A stretch of 64,000 nt of DNA from Escherichia coli (GTDB lineage: Bacteria; Pseudomonadota; Gammaproteobacteria; Enterobacterales; Enterobacteriaceae): the NCBI RefSeq assembly GCF_050920415.1, contig NZ_CP169309.1; one strand, written 5' to 3'. The position numbers were made by a program, and so were the translations under genes. Shown piece after piece: positions 39,026-46,777 of the stretch (position 1 is its first letter; each line of letters starts with the position of its first letter). Below the pieces are notes generated by a model. That model did not search any database, was not told the DNA's origin, and saw only the letters and a list, made by a program, of their open reading frames with translations.

Positions 39026-39610
39026 GTGACGATTAAATTGATTGTCGGCCTGGCGAACCCCGGCGCTGAATACGCCGCAACGCGACATAATGCTGGTGCC
39101 TGGTTCGTTGACTTACTGGCAGAGCGTTTGCGTGCTCCGCTGCGCGAAGAGGCTAAATTCTTTGGTTATACTTCGCGAGTCACCCTTGGAGGCGAAGATG
39201 TCCGCCTGTTAGTCCCGACTACATTTATGAATCTCAGCGGCAAAGCCGTTGCGGCGATGGCCAGTTTTTTCCGCATTAATCCGGACGAAATTCTGGTTGC
39301 CCACGACGAACTGGATCTGCCACCTGGCGTCGCCAAATTTAAGTTGGGCGGTGGCCATGGTGGTCACAATGGACTGAAAGACATCATCAGTAAATTGGGT
39401 AATAACCCTAACTTTCACCGTTTACGCATCGGAATCGGTCATCCAGGCGATAAAAATAAAGTTGTCGGTTTTGTGTTAGGCAAACCGCCTGTTAGTGAAC
39501 AGAAGTTAATTGATGAAGCCATCGACGAAGCGGCACGTTGTACTGAAATGTGGTTTACAGAGGGCTTGACCAAAGCAACGAACCGATTGCACGCCTTTAA
39601 AGCGCAATAA
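39026..39610 (+). CDS. pth: Peptidyl-tRNA hydrolase
   Basis: 194-aa ORF from GTG: [32 protein letters not shown]... Confidence 0.95.
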
Positions 39611-39726: not shown

Positions 39727-40818
39727 ATGGGATTCAAATGCGGTATCGTCGGTTTGCCCAACGTCGGGAAATCTACCCTGTTCAACGCGCTGACCAAAGC
39801 CGGTATTGAAGCGGCCAACTTTCCATTCTGCACCATCGAGCCGAACACAGGCGTCGTACCAATGCCTGACCCTCGCCTGGATCAACTGGCTGAAATCGTA
39901 AAACCGCAGCGTACGCTTCCCACGACCATGGAATTTGTCGATATCGCCGGTCTGGTAAAAGGCGCATCGAAAGGCGAAGGTCTGGGTAACCAGTTCCTGA
40001 CCAACATCCGTGAAACCGAAGCGATCGGTCACGTTGTTCGCTGCTTTGAAAACGACAACATCATTCACGTTTCCGGCAAAGTTAACCCGGCGGATGATAT
40101 TGAAGTTATCAACACAGAACTGGCGCTGGCAGACCTCGACACCTGCGAACGTGCGATTCATCGCGTACAGAAGAAAGCCAAAGGCGGCGATAAAGACGCG
40201 AAAGCCGAGCTGGCGGTACTGGAAAAATGCCTGCCACAGCTGGAAAACGCAGGTATGCTGCGCGCGCTGGATTTAAGCGCTGAAGAGAAAGCGGCTATTC
40301 GTTACCTGAGCTTCCTGACGCTGAAACCAACAATGTACATCGCCAACGTCAACGAAGACGGTTTTGAAAACAACCCGTATCTTGACCAGGTGCGTGAAAT
40401 CGCGGCGAAAGAAGGTTCTGTTGTGGTTCCGGTTTGTGCTGCTGTTGAAGCAGACATTGCCGAACTGGACGACGAAGAACGTGACGAGTTTATGCAGGAG
40501 CTTGGGCTGGAAGAGCCGGGCCTAAACCGCGTGATCCGTGCCGGTTATAAGCTGCTGAACCTGCAAACTTACTTCACCGCTGGGGTGAAAGAAGTGCGTG
40601 CATGGACCATTCCGGTTGGTGCAACCGCGCCGCAGGCCGCTGGCAAAATCCATACTGATTTTGAAAAAGGCTTTATCCGTGCACAAACTATTTCGTTCGA
40701 AGATTTCATCACTTACAAAGGTGAACAAGGCGCGAAAGAAGCGGGCAAAATGCGTGCAGAAGGTAAAGATTACATCGTTAAAGATGGCGATGTAATGAAC
40801 TTCCTGTTCAATGTCTAA
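39727..40818 (+). CDS. ychF: Ribosome-binding ATPase YchF (Obg family)
   Basis: 363-aa ORF with G1 motif [15 protein letters not shown] and TGS domain. Confidence 0.96.
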
Positions 40819-41064
40819 TTAATTTGTTGTCTCATGAGGTTTCGCTAAATCTCATGAAGAGCGCAAAAGTATATAAAATCCACGCAATTGCGTGGATTTT
40901 TTCATTTCACCGAGTCCTAACCATTCTTATAACATCCTACACTTTTGTGCTTATTGCCTATAGTGAACCACGAGAATAATTAAAGACATAAGTGTTCAGA
41001 TGAGGGATATCTCATTAGCAATGAGATCACGTAAGTTTGTGTTCCACTGCACATCAGACACCTT

Positions 41065-41295
41065 TTACAGCTGATCAATATTGATCACGTTCCAATATGC
41101 TGGCGAGAAAAGGACTTGCCTGAAGAGCAATATCCAGCAGATAAAGCCCCCGAATAACGTGATTACGTGCGATCCTGGCAAGATGAAAATGATAACCAGT
41201 ATCACGATAATAACGATATGCCAGAAAATCCATTGATCAAAAATGAATATCGATGTTTTTTGCTTTTTCTTATTAGTAATGCAAAAATGGCTCAT
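41065..41295 (-). CDS. Hypothetical small membrane protein (76 aa), unannotated candidate
   Basis: ORF MSHFCITNKKKQKTSIFIFDQWIFWHIVIIVILVIIFILPGSHVITLFGGFICWILLF... has a Lys-rich N-terminus followed by one or two hydrophobic helices; lies in AT-rich DNA, so a chance ORF cannot be excluded. Confidence 0.25.
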   Translation of the reverse strand: MSHFCITNKKKQKTSIFIFDQWIFWHIVIIVILVIIFILPGSHVITLFGGFICWILLFRQVLFSPAYWNVINIDQL

Positions 41296-41663
41296 ATTGT
41301 TTTTGTTATGCAGTTACATCAAGCGAAAATCCCATAACTAATTAGGATTATTACCAAAAATATTCACCAAATTATTTAACCGCTGTTTGTTGTAATGTTT
41401 TTGTCATATTCATAGTAACGAATTGGAATAAGTAACGACAACTTAGGGAATAACTCGATCTAAACTCACCTTTGTAAAGGGGATGTTAAATATATATTAA
41501 TTCCTGTGTTCCTGATTTTGCCCGGTAATAGAGAATTATTCTCAGAGCAGCTCATCATGATTGCACCATACAAATATCATGATGATAAGAGGATATTATT
41601 CATTGACTTAAACAAAATGACAAAATCCATAGACCCATAGCTTGGGTACTATATAGGAGTGGT

Positions 41664-44531
41664 ATGGGCATCAAACAACACAATGGGAATACCAAAGCCG
41701 ATCGTCTCGCTGAATTAAAAATCCGTTCGCCCTCCATTCAACTGATAAAATATGGCGCTATTGGTTTGAATGCAATTATCTTTTCCCCCCTGCTGATAGC
41801 TGCTGATTTAGGAAGTCAAAATGGCACCAATATTACTATTAATGATGGTGACAGAATTACAGGAGATACCGCCGATCCATCAGGAAACCTCTATGGTGTA
41901 ATGACCCCAGCAGGAAACACGCCTGGCAATATCAACCTGGGTGATGATGTCACCGTCAATGTCAACGACGCCTCTGGATATGCAAAGGGAATCATTATTC
42001 AGGGCAAGAACAGCTCTCTGACAGCTAACCGACTTACAGTAGATGTTGTTGGTCAAACCTCTGCCATCGGCATTAATTTAATTGGTGACTATACACATGC
42101 TGACTTAGGCACAGGCAGCACCATTAAGAGTAACGATGACGGCATCATTATTGGGCATAGCTCAACACTAACAGCCTCTCAATTCACCATTGAAAACTCG
42201 AACGGTATAGGCCTAACCATCAATGACTATGGCACCAGTGTCGATCTTGGAAGCGGTAGTAAAATCAAGACCGATGGAAGTACAGGTGTTTATATCGGTG
42301 GTCTCAACGGCAATAACGCCAACGGTGCTGCGCGTTTTACGGCGACAGACCTGACAATCGATGTTCAGGGCTACAGCGCCATGGGAATAAACGTACAGAA
42401 AAACTCTGTTGTCGATCTCGGAACAAACAGTACCATTAAAACCAATGGCGATAATGCACACGGCCTCTGGAGCTTTGGCCAGGTGAGCGCGAATGCACTC
42501 ACTGTTGATGTAACTGGAGCCGCTGCCAATGGCGTCGAAGTTCGTGGTGGTACAACCACTATCGGTGCTGATAGCCATATTTCTTCCGCGCAGGGCGGTG
42601 GCCTCGTAACCAGTGGTTCAGACGCGACAATCAATTTTTCTGGCACGGCAGCGCAACGAAACAGCATCTTTTCCAGCGGTTCTTATGGTGCCTCAGCCCA
42701 GACGGCAACGGCTGTTATCAACATGCAAAATACCGATATTACGGTTGATCGTAATGGCAGTCTGGCGCTGGGTTTGTGGGCGCTCAGCGGCGGTAGAATA
42801 ACCGGAGACAGTTTGGCTATCACCGGCGCGGCAGGAGCCAGGGGGATTTATGCCATGACCAACAGCCAGATCGATCTCACGAGCGATCTGGTCATTGATA
42901 TGAGTACACCCGACCAGATGGCCATCGCAACGCAACATGACGATGGTTATGCCGCCAGCCGCATCAACGCCTCGGGTCGTATGCTTATCAACGGTAGCGT
43001 TCTTTCTAAAGGTGGGCTAATCAATCTGGATATGCACCCTGGGTCGGTTTGGACAGGTTCTTCCCTCAGCGATAATGTCAATGGCGGAAAACTGGACGTT
43101 GCAATGAATAACAGCGTCTGGAACGTAACAAGTAATTCTAATCTCGACACGCTGGCGCTGAGCCATTCAACTGTCGATTTTGCCAGCCACGCGTCAACTG
43201 CCGGCACATTTACCACATTAAACGTAGAGAACCTTAGCGGTAACAGTACCTTTATTATGCGTGCTGATGTTGTTGGCGAGGGTAATGGCGTTAATAATAA
43301 AGGAGATTTATTGAATATCTGCGGGAGTAGTGCTGGTAATCACGTATTGGCTATCCGTAACCAGGGCAGCGAGGCCACAACGGGAAATGAAGTTCTGACA
43401 GTGGTAAAAACCACTGACGGCGCGGCCTCGTTCAGCGCGTCTTCTCAGGTTGAGTTGGGGGGATATCTGTATGATGTGCGTAAAAATGGCACTAACTGGG
43501 AGCTTTATGCTTCCGGGACAATTCCGGAGCCGACTCCTAATCCAGAGCCCACACCAGCTCCCGCTCAGCCCCCCATAGTCAACCCCGATCCTACGCCTGC
43601 CCCCGCTCCCACGCCTAAACCCACCACGACCGCAGATGCTGGCGGCAATTATCTCAATGTCGGTTACTTATTGAACTATGTTGAAAACCGTACGCTGATG
43701 CAACGGATGGGTGACCTGCGAAATCAGGGTAAAGACGGTAATATCTGGTTGCGCAGTTATGGGGGAAGCCTGGACTCCTTTGCCAGTGGCAAACTGAGCG
43801 GCTTTGACATGGGTTACAGCGGTATCCAGTTTGGTGGGGATAAACGTCTCTCTGATGAAATGCCGTTGTATGTCGGTCTGTATATTGGCTCAACACATGC
43901 ATCGCCGGACTATAGCGGAGGCGACGGTACCGCACGTTCAGACTACATGGGAATGTACGCCAGTTACATGGCACACAACGGTTTTTACAGCGATCTCGTT
44001 GTAAAAGCATCGCACCAGAAAAATAGTTTCCACGTACTGGACAGTCAGAACAACGGCGTTAACGCCAACGGCACTGCGAATGGATTGAGCATCTCCCTGG
44101 AAGCCGGGCAGAGGTTCAACCTGACCCCTACTGGTTATGGGTTCTATATAGAGCCGCAAACCCAGCTCACATACAGCCACCAGAATGGGATGGCTATGAA
44201 GGCGAGTAATGGTCTCAATATACATCTGAATCACTACGAATCGCTGCTGGGGCGTGCCAGCATGATACTGGGATATGACATCACCGCAGGCAACAGCCAG
44301 CTGAATGTCTATGTGAAGACTGGCGCTATCCGCGAGTTTTCAGGGGATACCGAATATCTGTTGAACAACTCCCGGGAGAAGTACAGTTTCAAAGGTAATG
44401 GCTGGAATAACGGCGTGGGAGTCAGTGCACAGTATAACAAACAGCACACATTCTATCTCGAAGCGGATTACACGCAGGGTAACCTCTTTGATCAGAAGCA
44501 AGTCAACGGAGGATATCGCTTCAGCTTTTAA
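41664..44531 (+). CDS. ycgV: Autotransporter adhesin (YcgV-type; type Va secretion)
   Basis: 955-aa ORF; GGAG SD upstream; repetitive Gly/Thr/Asn-rich beta-helix passenger; Pro-rich linker PEPTPNPEPTPAPAQPPIVNPDPTPAPAPTPKPTTT; C-terminal beta-barrel ending ...GGYRFSF. Confidence 0.9.
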   Translation: MGIKQHNGNTKADRLAELKIRSPSIQLIKYGAIGLNAIIFSPLLIAADLGSQNGTNITINDGDRITGDTADPSGNLYGVMTPAGNTPGNINLGDDVTVNVNDASGYAKGIIIQGKNSSLTANRLTVDVVGQTSAIGINLIGDYTHADLGTGSTIKSNDDGIIIGHSSTLTASQFTIENSNGIGLTINDYGTSVDLGSGSKIKTDGSTGVYIGGLNGNNANGAARFTATDLTIDVQGYSAMGINVQKNSVVDLGTNSTIKTNGDNAHGLWSFGQVSANALTVDVTGAAANGVEVRGGTTTIGADSHISSAQGGGLVTSGSDATINFSGTAAQRNSIFSSGSYGASAQTATAVINMQNTDITVDRNGSLALGLWALSGGRITGDSLAITGAAGARGIYAMTNSQIDLTSDLVIDMSTPDQMAIATQHDDGYAASRINASGRMLINGSVLSKGGLINLDMHPGSVWTGSSLSDNVNGGKLDVAMNNSVWNVTSNSNLDTLALSHSTVDFASHASTAGTFTTLNVENLSGNSTFIMRADVVGEGNGVNNKGDLLNICGSSAGNHVLAIRNQGSEATTGNEVLTVVKTTDGAASFSASSQVELGGYLYDVRKNGTNWELYASGTIPEPTPNPEPTPAPAQPPIVNPDPTPAPAPTPKPTTTADAGGNYLNVGYLLNYVENRTLMQRMGDLRNQGKDGNIWLRSYGGSLDSFASGKLSGFDMGYSGIQFGGDKRLSDEMPLYVGLYIGSTHASPDYSGGDGTARSDYMGMYASYMAHNGFYSDLVVKASHQKNSFHVLDSQNNGVNANGTANGLSISLEAGQRFNLTPTGYGFYIEPQTQLTYSHQNGMAMKASNGLNIHLNHYESLLGRASMILGYDITAGNSQLNVYVKTGAIREFSGDTEYLLNNSREKYSFKGNGWNNGVGVSAQYNKQHTFYLEADYTQGNLFDQKQVNGGYRFSF

Positions 44532-44630
44532 GTGCGGGATAGACAAGCCCTTAAACGATGCTGAAAATTTTTAGCGTGCGCCGGAATGAAATACAGATCA
44601 CTCTGATGTATCAGAAATCGTCTCTGTCTT

Positions 44631-46550
44631 TCATACCCGGCGCTTAAACTGCCCTGCATCAATGCCATGTTGCTTCATTTTCCGCCACAGCGTAGTGCGG
44701 CCGATTCCAAGTAAAGCCGACATTTCCTGAATGCGACCGCCTGTGACCTGGGCTGCGTTAATAATTGCCTCTTTTTCAACTTCCGCAAATGACAGACTGG
44801 TGGAAAGGCGAGTGGCGCTGACATCATCTGTCGCCTGCTCGGTAAACAGATGTTCAGGTAAATCACTGACGCGAATGCGCCCGTTATCACTACTCAGAGC
44901 AAGATTCTCGATGACGCTGTAAAGTTCAAAATCGTTGCCTGGCCATGCACAAGAAACCAGGCGAGCGAGGGCATCGTCATCAATTTTCAGACGCGTAGAG
45001 AAGCGTTTTTCAAGACTGCGTAATTTGTTATTCACCAGCGCCGGAATGCTGCCACGCCGCATACGCAGAGGCGGGATGGTAATTTCAAATGCATGCAGCG
45101 CGTAATACAGCTGGCGACTAAAGCGATTTTGTTCCACCAGCATTGCCAGGTCCGCGGTCGTTGTGGCAATCACTTTGACATCAATTGGTATTAAACGCCG
45201 CGCATCCAGTCGCGTGATAACACCCTGCTTGATAACCTGAAGCAAAGCAGACTGTAACTCCACCGCCAGATATTCAATCTTTTCAAGAAACAGCGTGCCG
45301 CCGTGCGCCAGTTCCAGTCGACTCAGACGACCATTTTCATTGTCCGTGCGATCGCCGCCAATAAATTCTTCCGCCAGCGCCGCATCACCATATAACTCAC
45401 AATTGACGGCGATATAAGGCCCCGCTGCACGCTCACTTTCATTATGAATTGCCTGACTTAGCAGTGCCTTGCCCACGCCCTCTTCTCCACAAAGCAGGAC
45501 AGGAAAGCTACTGCGCGCCGCCTGGCGACCAAAATGAATCAAGCGGCGGGTTTGCGGATCGTCCTGTGGCATATGAGCGAAAGTATGGCTGACTTTTCCT
45601 AATTGACTGGTCATTAACTGCCGCATCTGTTCCACAGGATGGAGCAACAAAATAAAGCTGGTTCCCTGCGTTTCTATTATCGGTTTAAGGGTTATCACCG
45701 CATCAATAAACTGGTGCTGACTTTCAAAGGTTGCTTCTACGTGTTTGAGCGGATGTGCCTGTTTTATTGCTTGTTGCAATACGGCGGGTAACGTTAAGAG
45801 TTCAGTGATCGCCCTTCCCTGACTTGCCGTCGCGTCAAGGCGCAAGGCCCGCGCCGCCTGGGCATTGATAAATTGCAAATTACCCTGCTCGTCCCAGCTA
45901 ATCACGCCATCATCCATACTTTCTAACAGGGCATTAAGTTGATTTAAATGACGGTTAGTTTCAGCGAGCAAACTGTCCGTCAGCAGTAAATTTCCGACCT
46001 CGCGTGCGATTGCCAACGTCAACGGCAAATCAGCTGCGGTAGTTTGCTCAACCGGACACGCCAGCGCTATTGTTCCCGTCAATCGGCCCTTGCTGTCAAA
46101 CAACGGTGTTGCACAAAAGGCCCAGTTCCAGAGTGCCTGTTTGAAATGTTGATCGGCCATCGTTTTCACGGCCTGACCAGAGATAGCCGCTAACGATAGC
46201 GCACAGGTACCAATAATTCCCTCTGCGCAATACGTGCCGTCATTGAATCCCAGGACACTAAGCTGGTGCAGCGTTTGTGGATCACCAAAACGACTAAGGA
46301 TGCAGGCGGTTTCATCAAGGATGAACAGTCCGCACGCCCGCGATTCCATATATTCCCAGGCATCTTCCAGCGCAGCCTGCCCGAGCGTCAGCATCGCTTT
46401 CTTACGCCGATAGATAGTAGCAAATGTCACGCCCTGGGCCTGGTGCGGTACGCTCCATGTCTCCCGTTTCATCAGTTTATTGCATCGCTCCCAGGAGGCT
46501 GCAATTAAGGGAGATATGCCCCGTTCATCGTTGTTAAAAGCGCCACTCAT
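44631..46550 (-). CDS. dhaR: Dihydroxyacetone kinase operon transcriptional activator DhaR (GAF/PAS, sigma54-type AAA+, HTH)
   Basis: 639 aa from ATG 46550 (MSGAFNNDERGISPLIAASWERCNKLM...); the track ORF extends 27 codons upstream. AAA+ motif GEEGVGKALL, C-terminal HTH. Confidence 0.92.
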   Translation of the reverse strand: MSGAFNNDERGISPLIAASWERCNKLMKRETWSVPHQAQGVTFATIYRRKKAMLTLGQAALEDAWEYMESRACGLFILDETACILSRFGDPQTLHQLSVLGFNDGTYCAEGIIGTCALSLAAISGQAVKTMADQHFKQALWNWAFCATPLFDSKGRLTGTIALACPVEQTTAADLPLTLAIAREVGNLLLTDSLLAETNRHLNQLNALLESMDDGVISWDEQGNLQFINAQAARALRLDATASQGRAITELLTLPAVLQQAIKQAHPLKHVEATFESQHQFIDAVITLKPIIETQGTSFILLLHPVEQMRQLMTSQLGKVSHTFAHMPQDDPQTRRLIHFGRQAARSSFPVLLCGEEGVGKALLSQAIHNESERAAGPYIAVNCELYGDAALAEEFIGGDRTDNENGRLSRLELAHGGTLFLEKIEYLAVELQSALLQVIKQGVITRLDARRLIPIDVKVIATTTADLAMLVEQNRFSRQLYYALHAFEITIPPLRMRRGSIPALVNNKLRSLEKRFSTRLKIDDDALARLVSCAWPGNDFELYSVIENLALSSDNGRIRVSDLPEHLFTEQATDDVSATRLSTSLSFAEVEKEAIINAAQVTGGRIQEMSALLGIGRTTLWRKMKQHGIDAGQFKRRV

Positions 46551-46777
46551 ATCCCGCATCCTTTGTGACAAAAGGTGTTCCGGCTCGCAATTTTTAGTAT
46601 TAAAACGCGTAAAAGTTTCAATATGGAACATTCATTAAAACATATGTTTCACCATGAAACATAATTTGGGCTAATTTTCTTTTCCCTTACCTGATGCACA
46701 ATGGATTTATCGGCAGTCAGTGGTCGCCGTGTCGTTGAACATCATCCATGCCCTACCGTAATTGCTGGAGCAAGATA

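Follow-up and report, generated by a model that had tools for sequence, protein, structure and literature searches.

The ychF-ycgV intergenic region

We analysed a 64,000-nt stretch of Escherichia coli DNA (the window; positions are counted from its first nucleotide), in which an open reading frame (ORF) lies on the minus strand between ychF and ycgV. The gene order at this locus in E. coli is pth-ychF-ycgV-dhaR, with an 845-bp AT-rich spacer between ychF and ycgV that holds the ORF. The locus comprises the following features.

39026-39610: pth
39727-40818: ychF
40875-40900, both strands: bidirectional intrinsic terminator with an 11-bp stem and T-tracts on each strand, ending ychF
40909-44637, no strand assigned: variable 3.7-kb islet (AT-rich spacer with the ORF, ycgV, and the ycgV-dhaR spacer), from BLAST against ST131 strain ZH193
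41065-41295, minus strand: the ORF, starting at ATG (termed ATG2), 76 codons plus a TAA stop, from the ORF listing
approximately 41206-41506, no strand assigned: equivalent of a K-12 promoter island (entry 1255333_301)
41595-41623, minus strand: sigma-70-like site, TTGTCA-17-AATAAT, 10 of 12 consensus matches
41664-44531, plus strand: ycgV
44631-46631, minus strand: dhaR

The existence of the ORF, its coordinates, strand and number of codons, and its translation, MSHFCITNKKKQKTSIFIFDQWIFWHIVIIVILVIIFILPGSHVITLFGGFICWILLFRQVLFSPAYWNVINIDQL (76 aa), are all as given in the original prediction, which also described it as divergent from ycgV and as lacking an annotated counterpart in K-12. Both descriptions are correct: ycgV starts at 41664 on the opposite strand, and MG1655 (NC_000913.3) has no feature between ycgV (b1202) and ychF (b1203). 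The ORF is convergent with ychF. An identical sequence of 76 aa is present in GenBank/nr as the E. coli entry P0001 ("hypothetical/membrane protein", 100% match), "hypothetical protein" or "membrane protein" being the name given to the ORF by some GenBank submitters. Among the approximately 100 RefSeq matches listed, none carries an annotation of the ORF by PGAP, a point in favour of a chance frame.

On the strand of the ORF, a single sigma-70-like site lies 5' of it, at 41595-41623; this is a consensus match only and would imply a leader of approximately 270 nt, and both hexamers of this candidate promoter are unchanged in K-12. On the 3' side, the only terminator-like site is the hairpin at 40875-40900, 165 nt past the stop codon. 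We also searched positions 40700-41800 against Rfam 15 (E ≤ 1), which returned sub-threshold leader- and terminator-like matches on the ychF hairpin, plus a spurious miRNA. The sub-threshold Leu and Phe leader matches are the ychF terminator hairpin itself, and a known RNA element was rejected on these grounds.

Homology to ZH193 stops at 40908 and restarts at 44638, with a 27-kb island in between in that strain; by this comparison, the islet is missing from B2 E. coli. YcgV, which is encoded in the islet, is an autotransporter adhesin associated with biofilms (PMC3796261, PMC9289746). A 15-nt inverted repeat (40893-40907 and 41615-41629) was considered as the boundary of a mobile element and rejected as a chance arrangement, because the left arm lies in DNA that islet-less strains also have and overlaps the tail of the ychF terminator. 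A plasmid or phage origin was likewise dismissed: the plasmid collection yielded E. coli records only, three of them chromosome-sized (4.8-4.9 Mb) and six of 92-311 kb, all rated non-mobilizable, and PHROGs gave no match.

The K-12 counterpart of the region is one of 78 promoter islands of that strain (Panyukov and Ozoline 2013, PMC3661553, Table 1; entry 1255333_301, U00096.2, ycgV(-)ychF(-)), is marked "A" in the H column, i.e., H-NS-bound in all ChIP studies, and is associated with a putatively foreign gene. By literature mapping, its equivalent at approximately 41206-41506 takes in approximately the first 30 codons of the ORF as well as 200 bp on its 5' side, and has a GC content of 28-33%. 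The mapping went via the MG1655 positions of the two candidate start codons (1256297 for the upstream ATG1, 1256321 for ATG2) and of the ORF end (1256476) together with the K-12 alignment, with a shift between U00096.2 and U00096.3 coordinates that we take to be +777.

This setting raises a serious rival to a coding origin. The ORF may be a chance open frame in AT- and T-rich DNA, the real role of which is to serve as the H-NS-silenced upstream region of the horizontally acquired ycgV adhesin gene. We regard this as possible, if somewhat doubtful. The listed promoter island, the uniform H-NS binding and a GC content of 28-37% all favour it. A simple sigma-70 consensus scan, however, found 2 sites compared to 4.6 ± 1.8 in shuffled sequence, i.e., no promoter enrichment, albeit with a cruder algorithm than PlatProm.

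Architecture of the predicted protein

The features within and immediately upstream of the ORF are listed below.

41100-41174, minus strand: 75-bp (25-codon) segment that is deleted in frame elsewhere, flanked by GCCAG microhomology
41116-41118, minus strand: codon 60, CAA (Gln) in the window strain and TAA in most undeleted alleles
41155-41295, minus strand: codons 1-47, Lys-rich N-terminus (NKKKQK) and hydrophobic core, open in 17 of 17 ORF-bearing alleles examined
41176-41235, minus strand: predicted transmembrane helix 1, residues approximately 21-40, QWIFWHIVIIVILVIIFILP, including 13 NTN codons, 19-mer hydropathy means 2.8-3.0
41314-41319, minus strand: upstream start codon (ATG1, 41319-41317), followed in the window strain by TAA (41316-41314), from alignment and 30-mer counts

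The original prediction of a Lys-rich N-terminus and then about 40 hydrophobic residues, forming one or two transmembrane helices, agrees with the hydropathy profile, which gives one strong helix and a second, weaker one at residues approximately 44-63. Kyte-Doolittle 19-mer means reach 3.01 across residues 21-45, with the peak at IVIIVILVIIFILPGSHVI. The NKKKQK motif precedes the first predicted helix, as the positive-inside rule would have it. An AlphaFold model (low confidence, pLDDT 64) contains two long helices, residues 3-46 and residues 52-70, interrupted at LPGSH. The product would consist of a Lys-rich cytoplasmic N-terminus, TM1, a short PGSH turn, a weaker TM2 and a short tail, and to judge from the hydropathy profile and the model it would probably adopt an N-in/C-in hairpin topology.

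Small membrane proteins and type I toxins typically combine a positively charged N-terminus with a strong transmembrane helix. The ORF could accordingly be read as encoding a functional protein of this sort that acts as a type I-like toxin or regulates a membrane complex. The N-terminal helix would then be the active part, all major alleles would work, the tail would be free to vary, and expression would be repressed by H-NS until specific conditions arise. The promoter-like site and the terminator that bracket the ORF on its own strand fit such a gene. Given the allele and substitution data below, we nevertheless consider it improbable.

Homologues and known families

A word-indexed search of 5.8 billion proteins returned 74 matches, of which all the organism-named ones are from E. 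coli or Shigella, and the sequences retrieved from this search are all variants of this locus. When 1.84 billion representatives were scanned exhaustively with an HMMER profile, 14 proteins were returned, again all variants or chimeras of the locus. Among 100,044 species genomes there were two matches, both K-12-type, on short contigs labelled Actinomycetes and Streptomyces, which were taken to be contamination. No homologue outside Escherichia/Shigella was thus present in the protein, profile and GTDB species-representative searches, a result that is expected of a chance frame and that counts against a functional protein.

Searches of family libraries gave best E-values of 2.9-3.2 in Pfam, to unrelated DUFs, a best E-value of 0.021 in NCBIfam (14 bits compared to a cut-off of 90 bits) and nothing below 0.1 in PHROGs. 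The idea that the ORF is a remnant of a larger known protein was rejected as well: it contains no Pfam or NCBIfam domain, and the profile search yields only the locus variants and chimeras.

The original prediction likened the ORF to small toxic or regulatory membrane proteins. A conserved protein of that kind finds no support in our data: there is no match to a toxin or small-protein family and no antitoxin sRNA, and substitutions are near-neutral. Specifically, none of the type I toxin families Hok/Gef, Ldr, TisB, Ibs, ShoB, DinQ and ZorO was matched in Pfam, NCBIfam or PHROGs, and none of the antitoxin RNAs Sok, Rdl, IstR, Sib, OhsC, AgrB and OrzO appeared in the Rfam 15 scan of described families. 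The ORF is also present in a single copy per genome, which adds to the case against a functional toxin.

Allele spectrum and start codons

The locus is carried by 4117 of 5426 complete E. coli genomes and is lacking in the other 1309 (approximately 24%). Three classes of allele account for most carriers. The long form, with CAA at codon 60 (76 or 84 aa), occurs in 271 genomes by exact 30-mer, or approximately 5%, and 5 of 5 sampled genomes of this type have an intact 84-aa ORF. A TAA at codon 60, giving 59 or 67 aa, is found in 1788 genomes, also by exact 30-mer. The 75-bp deletion, giving 51 or 59 aa, is present in approximately 2000 genomes, about half of the carriers, including K-12, W3110, BL21 and DH5a; this count follows from the 2120 of 4117 carriers that cover at least 80% of the query, the rest showing a match in two pieces (78%), as the deletion typically gives. 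The K-12 deletion removes a whole number of codons and leaves the downstream frame and its stop codon in place, which is one of the observations in favour of a coding origin and of a functional protein.

Other changes are more drastic. In the K-12-like strain L015, a 263-bp deletion takes out the ORF altogether, and the protein database holds many variants with frameshifted C-termini. Overall, shortened forms are present in more than 90% of carriers, as would be unsurprising for a chance frame. The only part of the ORF common to all ORF-bearing alleles is codons 1-47, and their persistence in every such allele speaks for a functional N-terminal helix; absence of the locus from 24% of genomes and its deletion in L015 speak against one. 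Conservation of the frame in related strains had been proposed as a check, with its loss counting against the original prediction, and loss is largely what we find: the 76- or 84-codon frame is restricted to 271 of the 4117 carriers.

The start codon is equally variable. In the window strain, ATG1 is followed directly by TAA, so that the internal ATG2 alone remains. In nearly all other genomes, the codon after ATG1 is TAT, and the ORF begins MYLHNKNNM (84, 67 or 59 aa in total). By exact 30-mer at ATG1, two genomes of the 5426 have the TAA version (the window strain plus a single further genome) and 4068 have the TAT version, in all of which ATG1 is the start of the longest ORF. O157-like alleles have CTG at the position of ATG2. 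Together with the allele classes, this variation makes the 76-codon ORF a strain-specific version of a polymorphic frame. The conservation of start and frame that characterises validated small membrane proteins is not seen here, the start differing between lineages.

ATG1 is preceded by a weak GGGA approximately 10 nt upstream (-4.0 kcal/mol), and ATG2 lacks a Shine-Dalgarno sequence (-0.3 kcal/mol). An unstable start without a Shine-Dalgarno sequence is what a chance frame would have, and the stop after ATG1 in the window strain argues in the same way against a functional gene, for which the identity of the ATG1 30-mer in 4068 genomes is the counterargument. The supplements of PIRT-Seq, acid-stress Ribo-seq and smORFer studies contain no entry at MG1655 1256297-1256476.

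Substitution pattern

The nucleotide-level analysis covered 18 alleles. Polymorphism density in a set of 12 alleles is 9.5% for the ORF compared to 7.9% and 10.4% for the two flanks, and changes at codon positions 1, 2 and 3 stand at 14:8:11 among the 18 alleles, without the third-position excess that would mark a constrained protein. The Nei-Gojobori pN/pS ratio of the ORF is 0.58-0.73, compared to 0.01 for ychF (last 156 codons) and 0.34 for ycgV (first 127 codons) in the same strains. The ORF value is noisy and not separable from neutrality, because the other two frames of the same region give 0.29 (frame +1) and 1.77. A dN/dS comparison had been suggested as a check on the original prediction; the substitution pattern, close to neutral, lends it no support. 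All of these observations agree with a chance frame.

The pN of the ORF is 0.037, approximately 70 times that of ychF, and codon 26, where the helix begins, encodes H, L, P or S; both facts weigh against a functional protein. A manual count for codons 1-59 gave approximately 16 non-synonymous and 10 synonymous changes, on too few sites to be significantly different from neutral. Changes within the helix are mostly swaps among I, V, L and F, which follow automatically because first-position changes fall in NTN codons. Second-position changes in the 13 NTN codons number zero among the 18 alleles; by our own estimate (P approximately 0.09), this may be a weak hint of constraint, and it would favour a functional helix.

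Coding signature and chance expectation

The length of the ORF is within chance expectation. In 5000 dinucleotide shuffles of the spacer, an ATG-initiated ORF of at least 76 codons arose in 12.8% (P = 0.13), one of at least 59 codons in 40% (P = 0.40) and one of at least 51 codons in 59% (P = 0.59). The last two lengths are those of the ORFs carried by most strains. The hydrophobic protein might then be a by-product of T-rich DNA, as thymine-rich non-genic sequences of yeast readily encode transmembrane segments (PMC7005711).

The composition of the ORF, however, is not reproduced by base composition alone. Its peak 19-residue hydropathy of 3.01 tops that of every other open frame of 40 codons or more in the window (792 frames in all, real transporters among them), and was equalled by 0 of 9503 shuffled ORFs; this statistic is partly circular, because hydropathy was the reason for which the ORF had been flagged. 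GC content by codon position is 32% (GC1), 26% (GC2) and 53% (GC3), so that GC3 exceeds the mean of GC1 and GC2 by 0.24 (P approximately 0.001). T occupies 51% of second codon positions (P approximately 0.002), and the 13 successive NTN codons were equalled by 0 of 3043 simulated ORFs. The reference for these composition P values is a set of simulated ORFs, 60 codons or longer, drawn from a Markov model of this AT-rich DNA. Unlike the hydropathy peak, the GC3 excess has no connection with the reason for the flagging. In a genome-wide scan, a few such hydrophobic runs in T-rich DNA would be expected by chance.

A sliding analysis confines the phase-specific composition to approximately 41092-41241, inside the ORF, and found none in the equally AT-rich flanks. 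A three-base periodicity limited to the frame is what a compositional test for coding looks for, and its sharp confinement speaks against a chance frame. The signature continues into the C-terminal portion that is missing from most strains. A simple-sequence source of the Ile/Val run was rejected, since Tandem Repeats Finder shows no array in the ORF. As far as base composition can tell, the pattern is what selection for a hydrophobic protein would leave, and it suggests past selection of this kind.

Origin and fate of the reading frame

Least credible of the alternatives is that the ORF is the mirror image of a former plus-strand gene, which we consider very improbable because the plus frame is closed in most alleles: the plus-strand ORF 41167-41337 does lie in exact antisense register, uses the same triplets to encode a hydrophilic, Asp/Asn-rich peptide of 56 aa, would have GC1 53%, GC2 26% and GC3 32%, a pattern that we would associate with AT-rich foreign genes, and coincides with polymorphism that is slightly highest at minus-strand position 1 (its own position 3), but it is shut by TAG in 13 of the 18 alleles (minus-strand codon 32 being CTA), has a TAA opposite minus-strand codon 47 (TTA) in the window, never exceeds 56 codons and lacks homologues, and the searches with the locus returned no plus-strand product.

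We favour the reading that the ORF is an accessory small membrane-protein gene of the ycgV islet, restricted to one lineage, under weak constraint and probably silent or decaying, and put its probability at about even. The ORF would encode, or would once have encoded, a small inner-membrane protein of E. coli and Shigella only; at full length it would comprise 84 codons from ATG1, or 76 in the window strain. The nonsense codon, the 75-bp in-frame deletion, frameshifts and loss of the locus would have whittled the gene down, leaving more than 90% of carriers with the N-terminal single-pass module alone, and amino-acid change in what is left would be almost unconstrained.

The composition signal is our reason for proposing a coding origin. 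The conclusion that the frame is not maintained comes from the rarity of the long form, the drifting start, the nearly free amino-acid change and the dispensability of the locus. Expression is probably absent or very low under ordinary conditions, because H-NS binds the AT-rich DNA in which the ORF is located and a proper ribosome-binding site is missing. The gene is also probably dispensable or decaying, because it is confined to E. coli, complete in approximately 5% of genomes and little constrained, and we infer that it has no function at present. Decay from an intact ancestor and a frame that was never functional are inseparable here, and the CAA/TAA difference at codon 60 is unpolarised, because there is no outgroup sequence.

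A more specific and rather unlikely reading can be put forward. The ORF may be a young, E. coli-specific membrane-protein gene caught between birth and death on the ycgV islet and silenced by H-NS, existing as a two-helix 84-aa form (5%), as single-helix forms of 59-67 aa (approximately 70%) or not at all (24%). At least one of these forms would be made and, once freed from H-NS silencing, would act on the membrane, for instance by being toxic or by modulating an envelope protein.

Relation to known systems

In size, and in its charged N-terminus followed by a hydrophobic helix, the ORF resembles the small inner-membrane proteins of E. coli known from ribosome profiling or comparative genomics, which are single-pass and 15-100 aa in length; its intergenic location and its omission by automatic annotation are further points of likeness. 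Validated small membrane proteins, however, have an MG1655 annotation and a start signal that can be recognised, and their conservation usually extends over Escherichia and Salmonella at least. The ORF is unannotated, its ATG is not preceded by a Shine-Dalgarno sequence, its range is limited to E. coli and Shigella, and both its length and its start vary. As a short hydrophobic intergenic gene, possibly with a long leader and with a hydropathy that would suit a membrane-active peptide, it is also similar to the type I toxins of the Hok/Sok, Ldr/Rdl, TisB/IstR-1, Ibs/Sib, ShoB/OhsC, DinQ/AgrB and ZorO/OrzO systems. Unlike these, it has no family match, no antitoxin sRNA family and no sign of the purifying selection that a maintained toxin should show, and it occurs in a single copy. 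The likeness to both groups is one of architecture only.

With the promoter islands (Panyukov and Ozoline 2013, PMC3661553), the connection is one of location: the K-12 counterpart is itself listed as H-NS-bound and beside a predicted foreign gene, and it lies in a variable islet. Being a promoter island describes the DNA and implies nothing for the ORF, whose phase-specific composition is not an island feature.

A further parallel is with proto-genes, in which thymine-rich DNA gives rise to transmembrane segments (Vakirlis et al. 2020, PMC7005711). Like these, the ORF is lineage-restricted, has no homologues, lies in T-rich DNA, encodes a predicted transmembrane helix and evolves near-neutrally, with polymorphism in both presence and length. 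Descriptively, it can be placed among the hydrophobic, orphan or proto-gene-like ORFs that T-rich DNA contains (PMC7005711). The concept was established in yeast (PMC7005711); here, no outgroup among the GTDB species representatives carries the ORF region to show a non-genic ancestor. The GC3 enrichment of the ORF also exceeds what raw T-richness would predict.

The ORF touches no long-standing open question, and it carries a caution: a striking hydrophobic ORF in one genome may be a rare allele, most strains, K-12 among them, having a shortened form under little constraint. If a product is made, it would be one more strain-variable small membrane protein of E. coli, and the two-helix, one-helix and absent states would constitute a natural allelic series for the birth and decay of an orphan membrane peptide in H-NS-silenced, acquired DNA.

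The ychF-dhaR interval as a site of variable DNA

The interval between ychF and dhaR is a variable-DNA hot spot. In the ST131 strain ZH193 (NZ_CP014497.1, 1385000-1427000), an island of approximately 27 kb takes the place of the 3.7-kb islet formed by the spacer and ycgV (window 40909-44637), and homology to the window stops at 40908, just past the ychF terminator, and restarts at 44638, at the dhaR stop codon. The ZH193 island carries two tyrosine integrases and IS elements, together with a retron Ec67-family reverse transcriptase/endonuclease and an "ABC-three component" system.

Most of the E. coli genomes compared are only 90-95% identical to the window strain across the spacer (40819-41663), while most of the strains concerned have a YchF protein identical to that of the window strain. 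For E. coli, such divergence of the spacer is unusual. In the sampled O145 (RM8843-C1) and O157:H7 (ECP19-598) genomes, ycgV has a RefSeq pseudogene annotation (incomplete, C-terminus missing), indicating that the adhesin gene adjoining the ORF of the putative small membrane protein is also decaying in some lineages.

Polymorphism within and around the small ORF

Features of the spacer and the small ORF
40893-40907 and 41615-41629: arms of an inverted repeat (15 nt, 93% complementary)
41092-41150, minus strand: cluster of CAA/TAA differences, codons ~50-60 of the small ORF
41167-41337, plus strand: antisense ORF, 56 codons, GTG start
41218-41220, minus strand: codon 26 of the small ORF, at the hydrophobic helix's N-terminal edge
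41314-41319, minus strand: start-stop ATG TAA, T-to-A change in the window strain

Codon 26 is unusually variable for a single site: the 18 sequences have four alleles between them, encoding His (CAT), Pro (CCT), Leu (CTT) or Ser (TCT). The haplotypes with CAA (Gln) or TAA (stop) at codon 60 are distinguished by a tight cluster of changes: G50D, W54G and Q60stop, plus a synonymous one at L56. The N-terminal haplotypes, by contrast, are reshuffled between the two classes, as in compared loci L006 and L007. This arrangement of the CAA and TAA haplotypes suggests that the ORF has undergone recombination or else contains a divergent segment of long standing.

At the usual start of the ORF, the T-to-A change creates a minimal "start-stop", present in only 2 of 5426 genomes: MFDS1022581, the twin of the window strain, and the goat isolate R32_14_1F. 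An Asp/Asn-rich ORF runs antisense to the small ORF, in exact register with it; this antisense frame is closed by a TAG in 13 of the 18 alleles.

The inverted repeat encloses nearly the entire AT-rich spacer. It is probably fortuitous, because its left arm overlaps the tail of the ychF terminator, in DNA that islet-free strains share.

Matches filed outside E. coli

Among GTDB species representatives, only two matches were obtained, both K-12-type copies of this locus from assemblies assigned to organisms unrelated to E. coli: an "Actinomycetes bacterium" MAG (JAEWQO010000123.1) and a 400-bp contig, with a coverage of 0.84, of "Streptomyces sp. DH24" (NZ_JARVKW010000136.1). Both are taken to be laboratory E. 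coli contamination.
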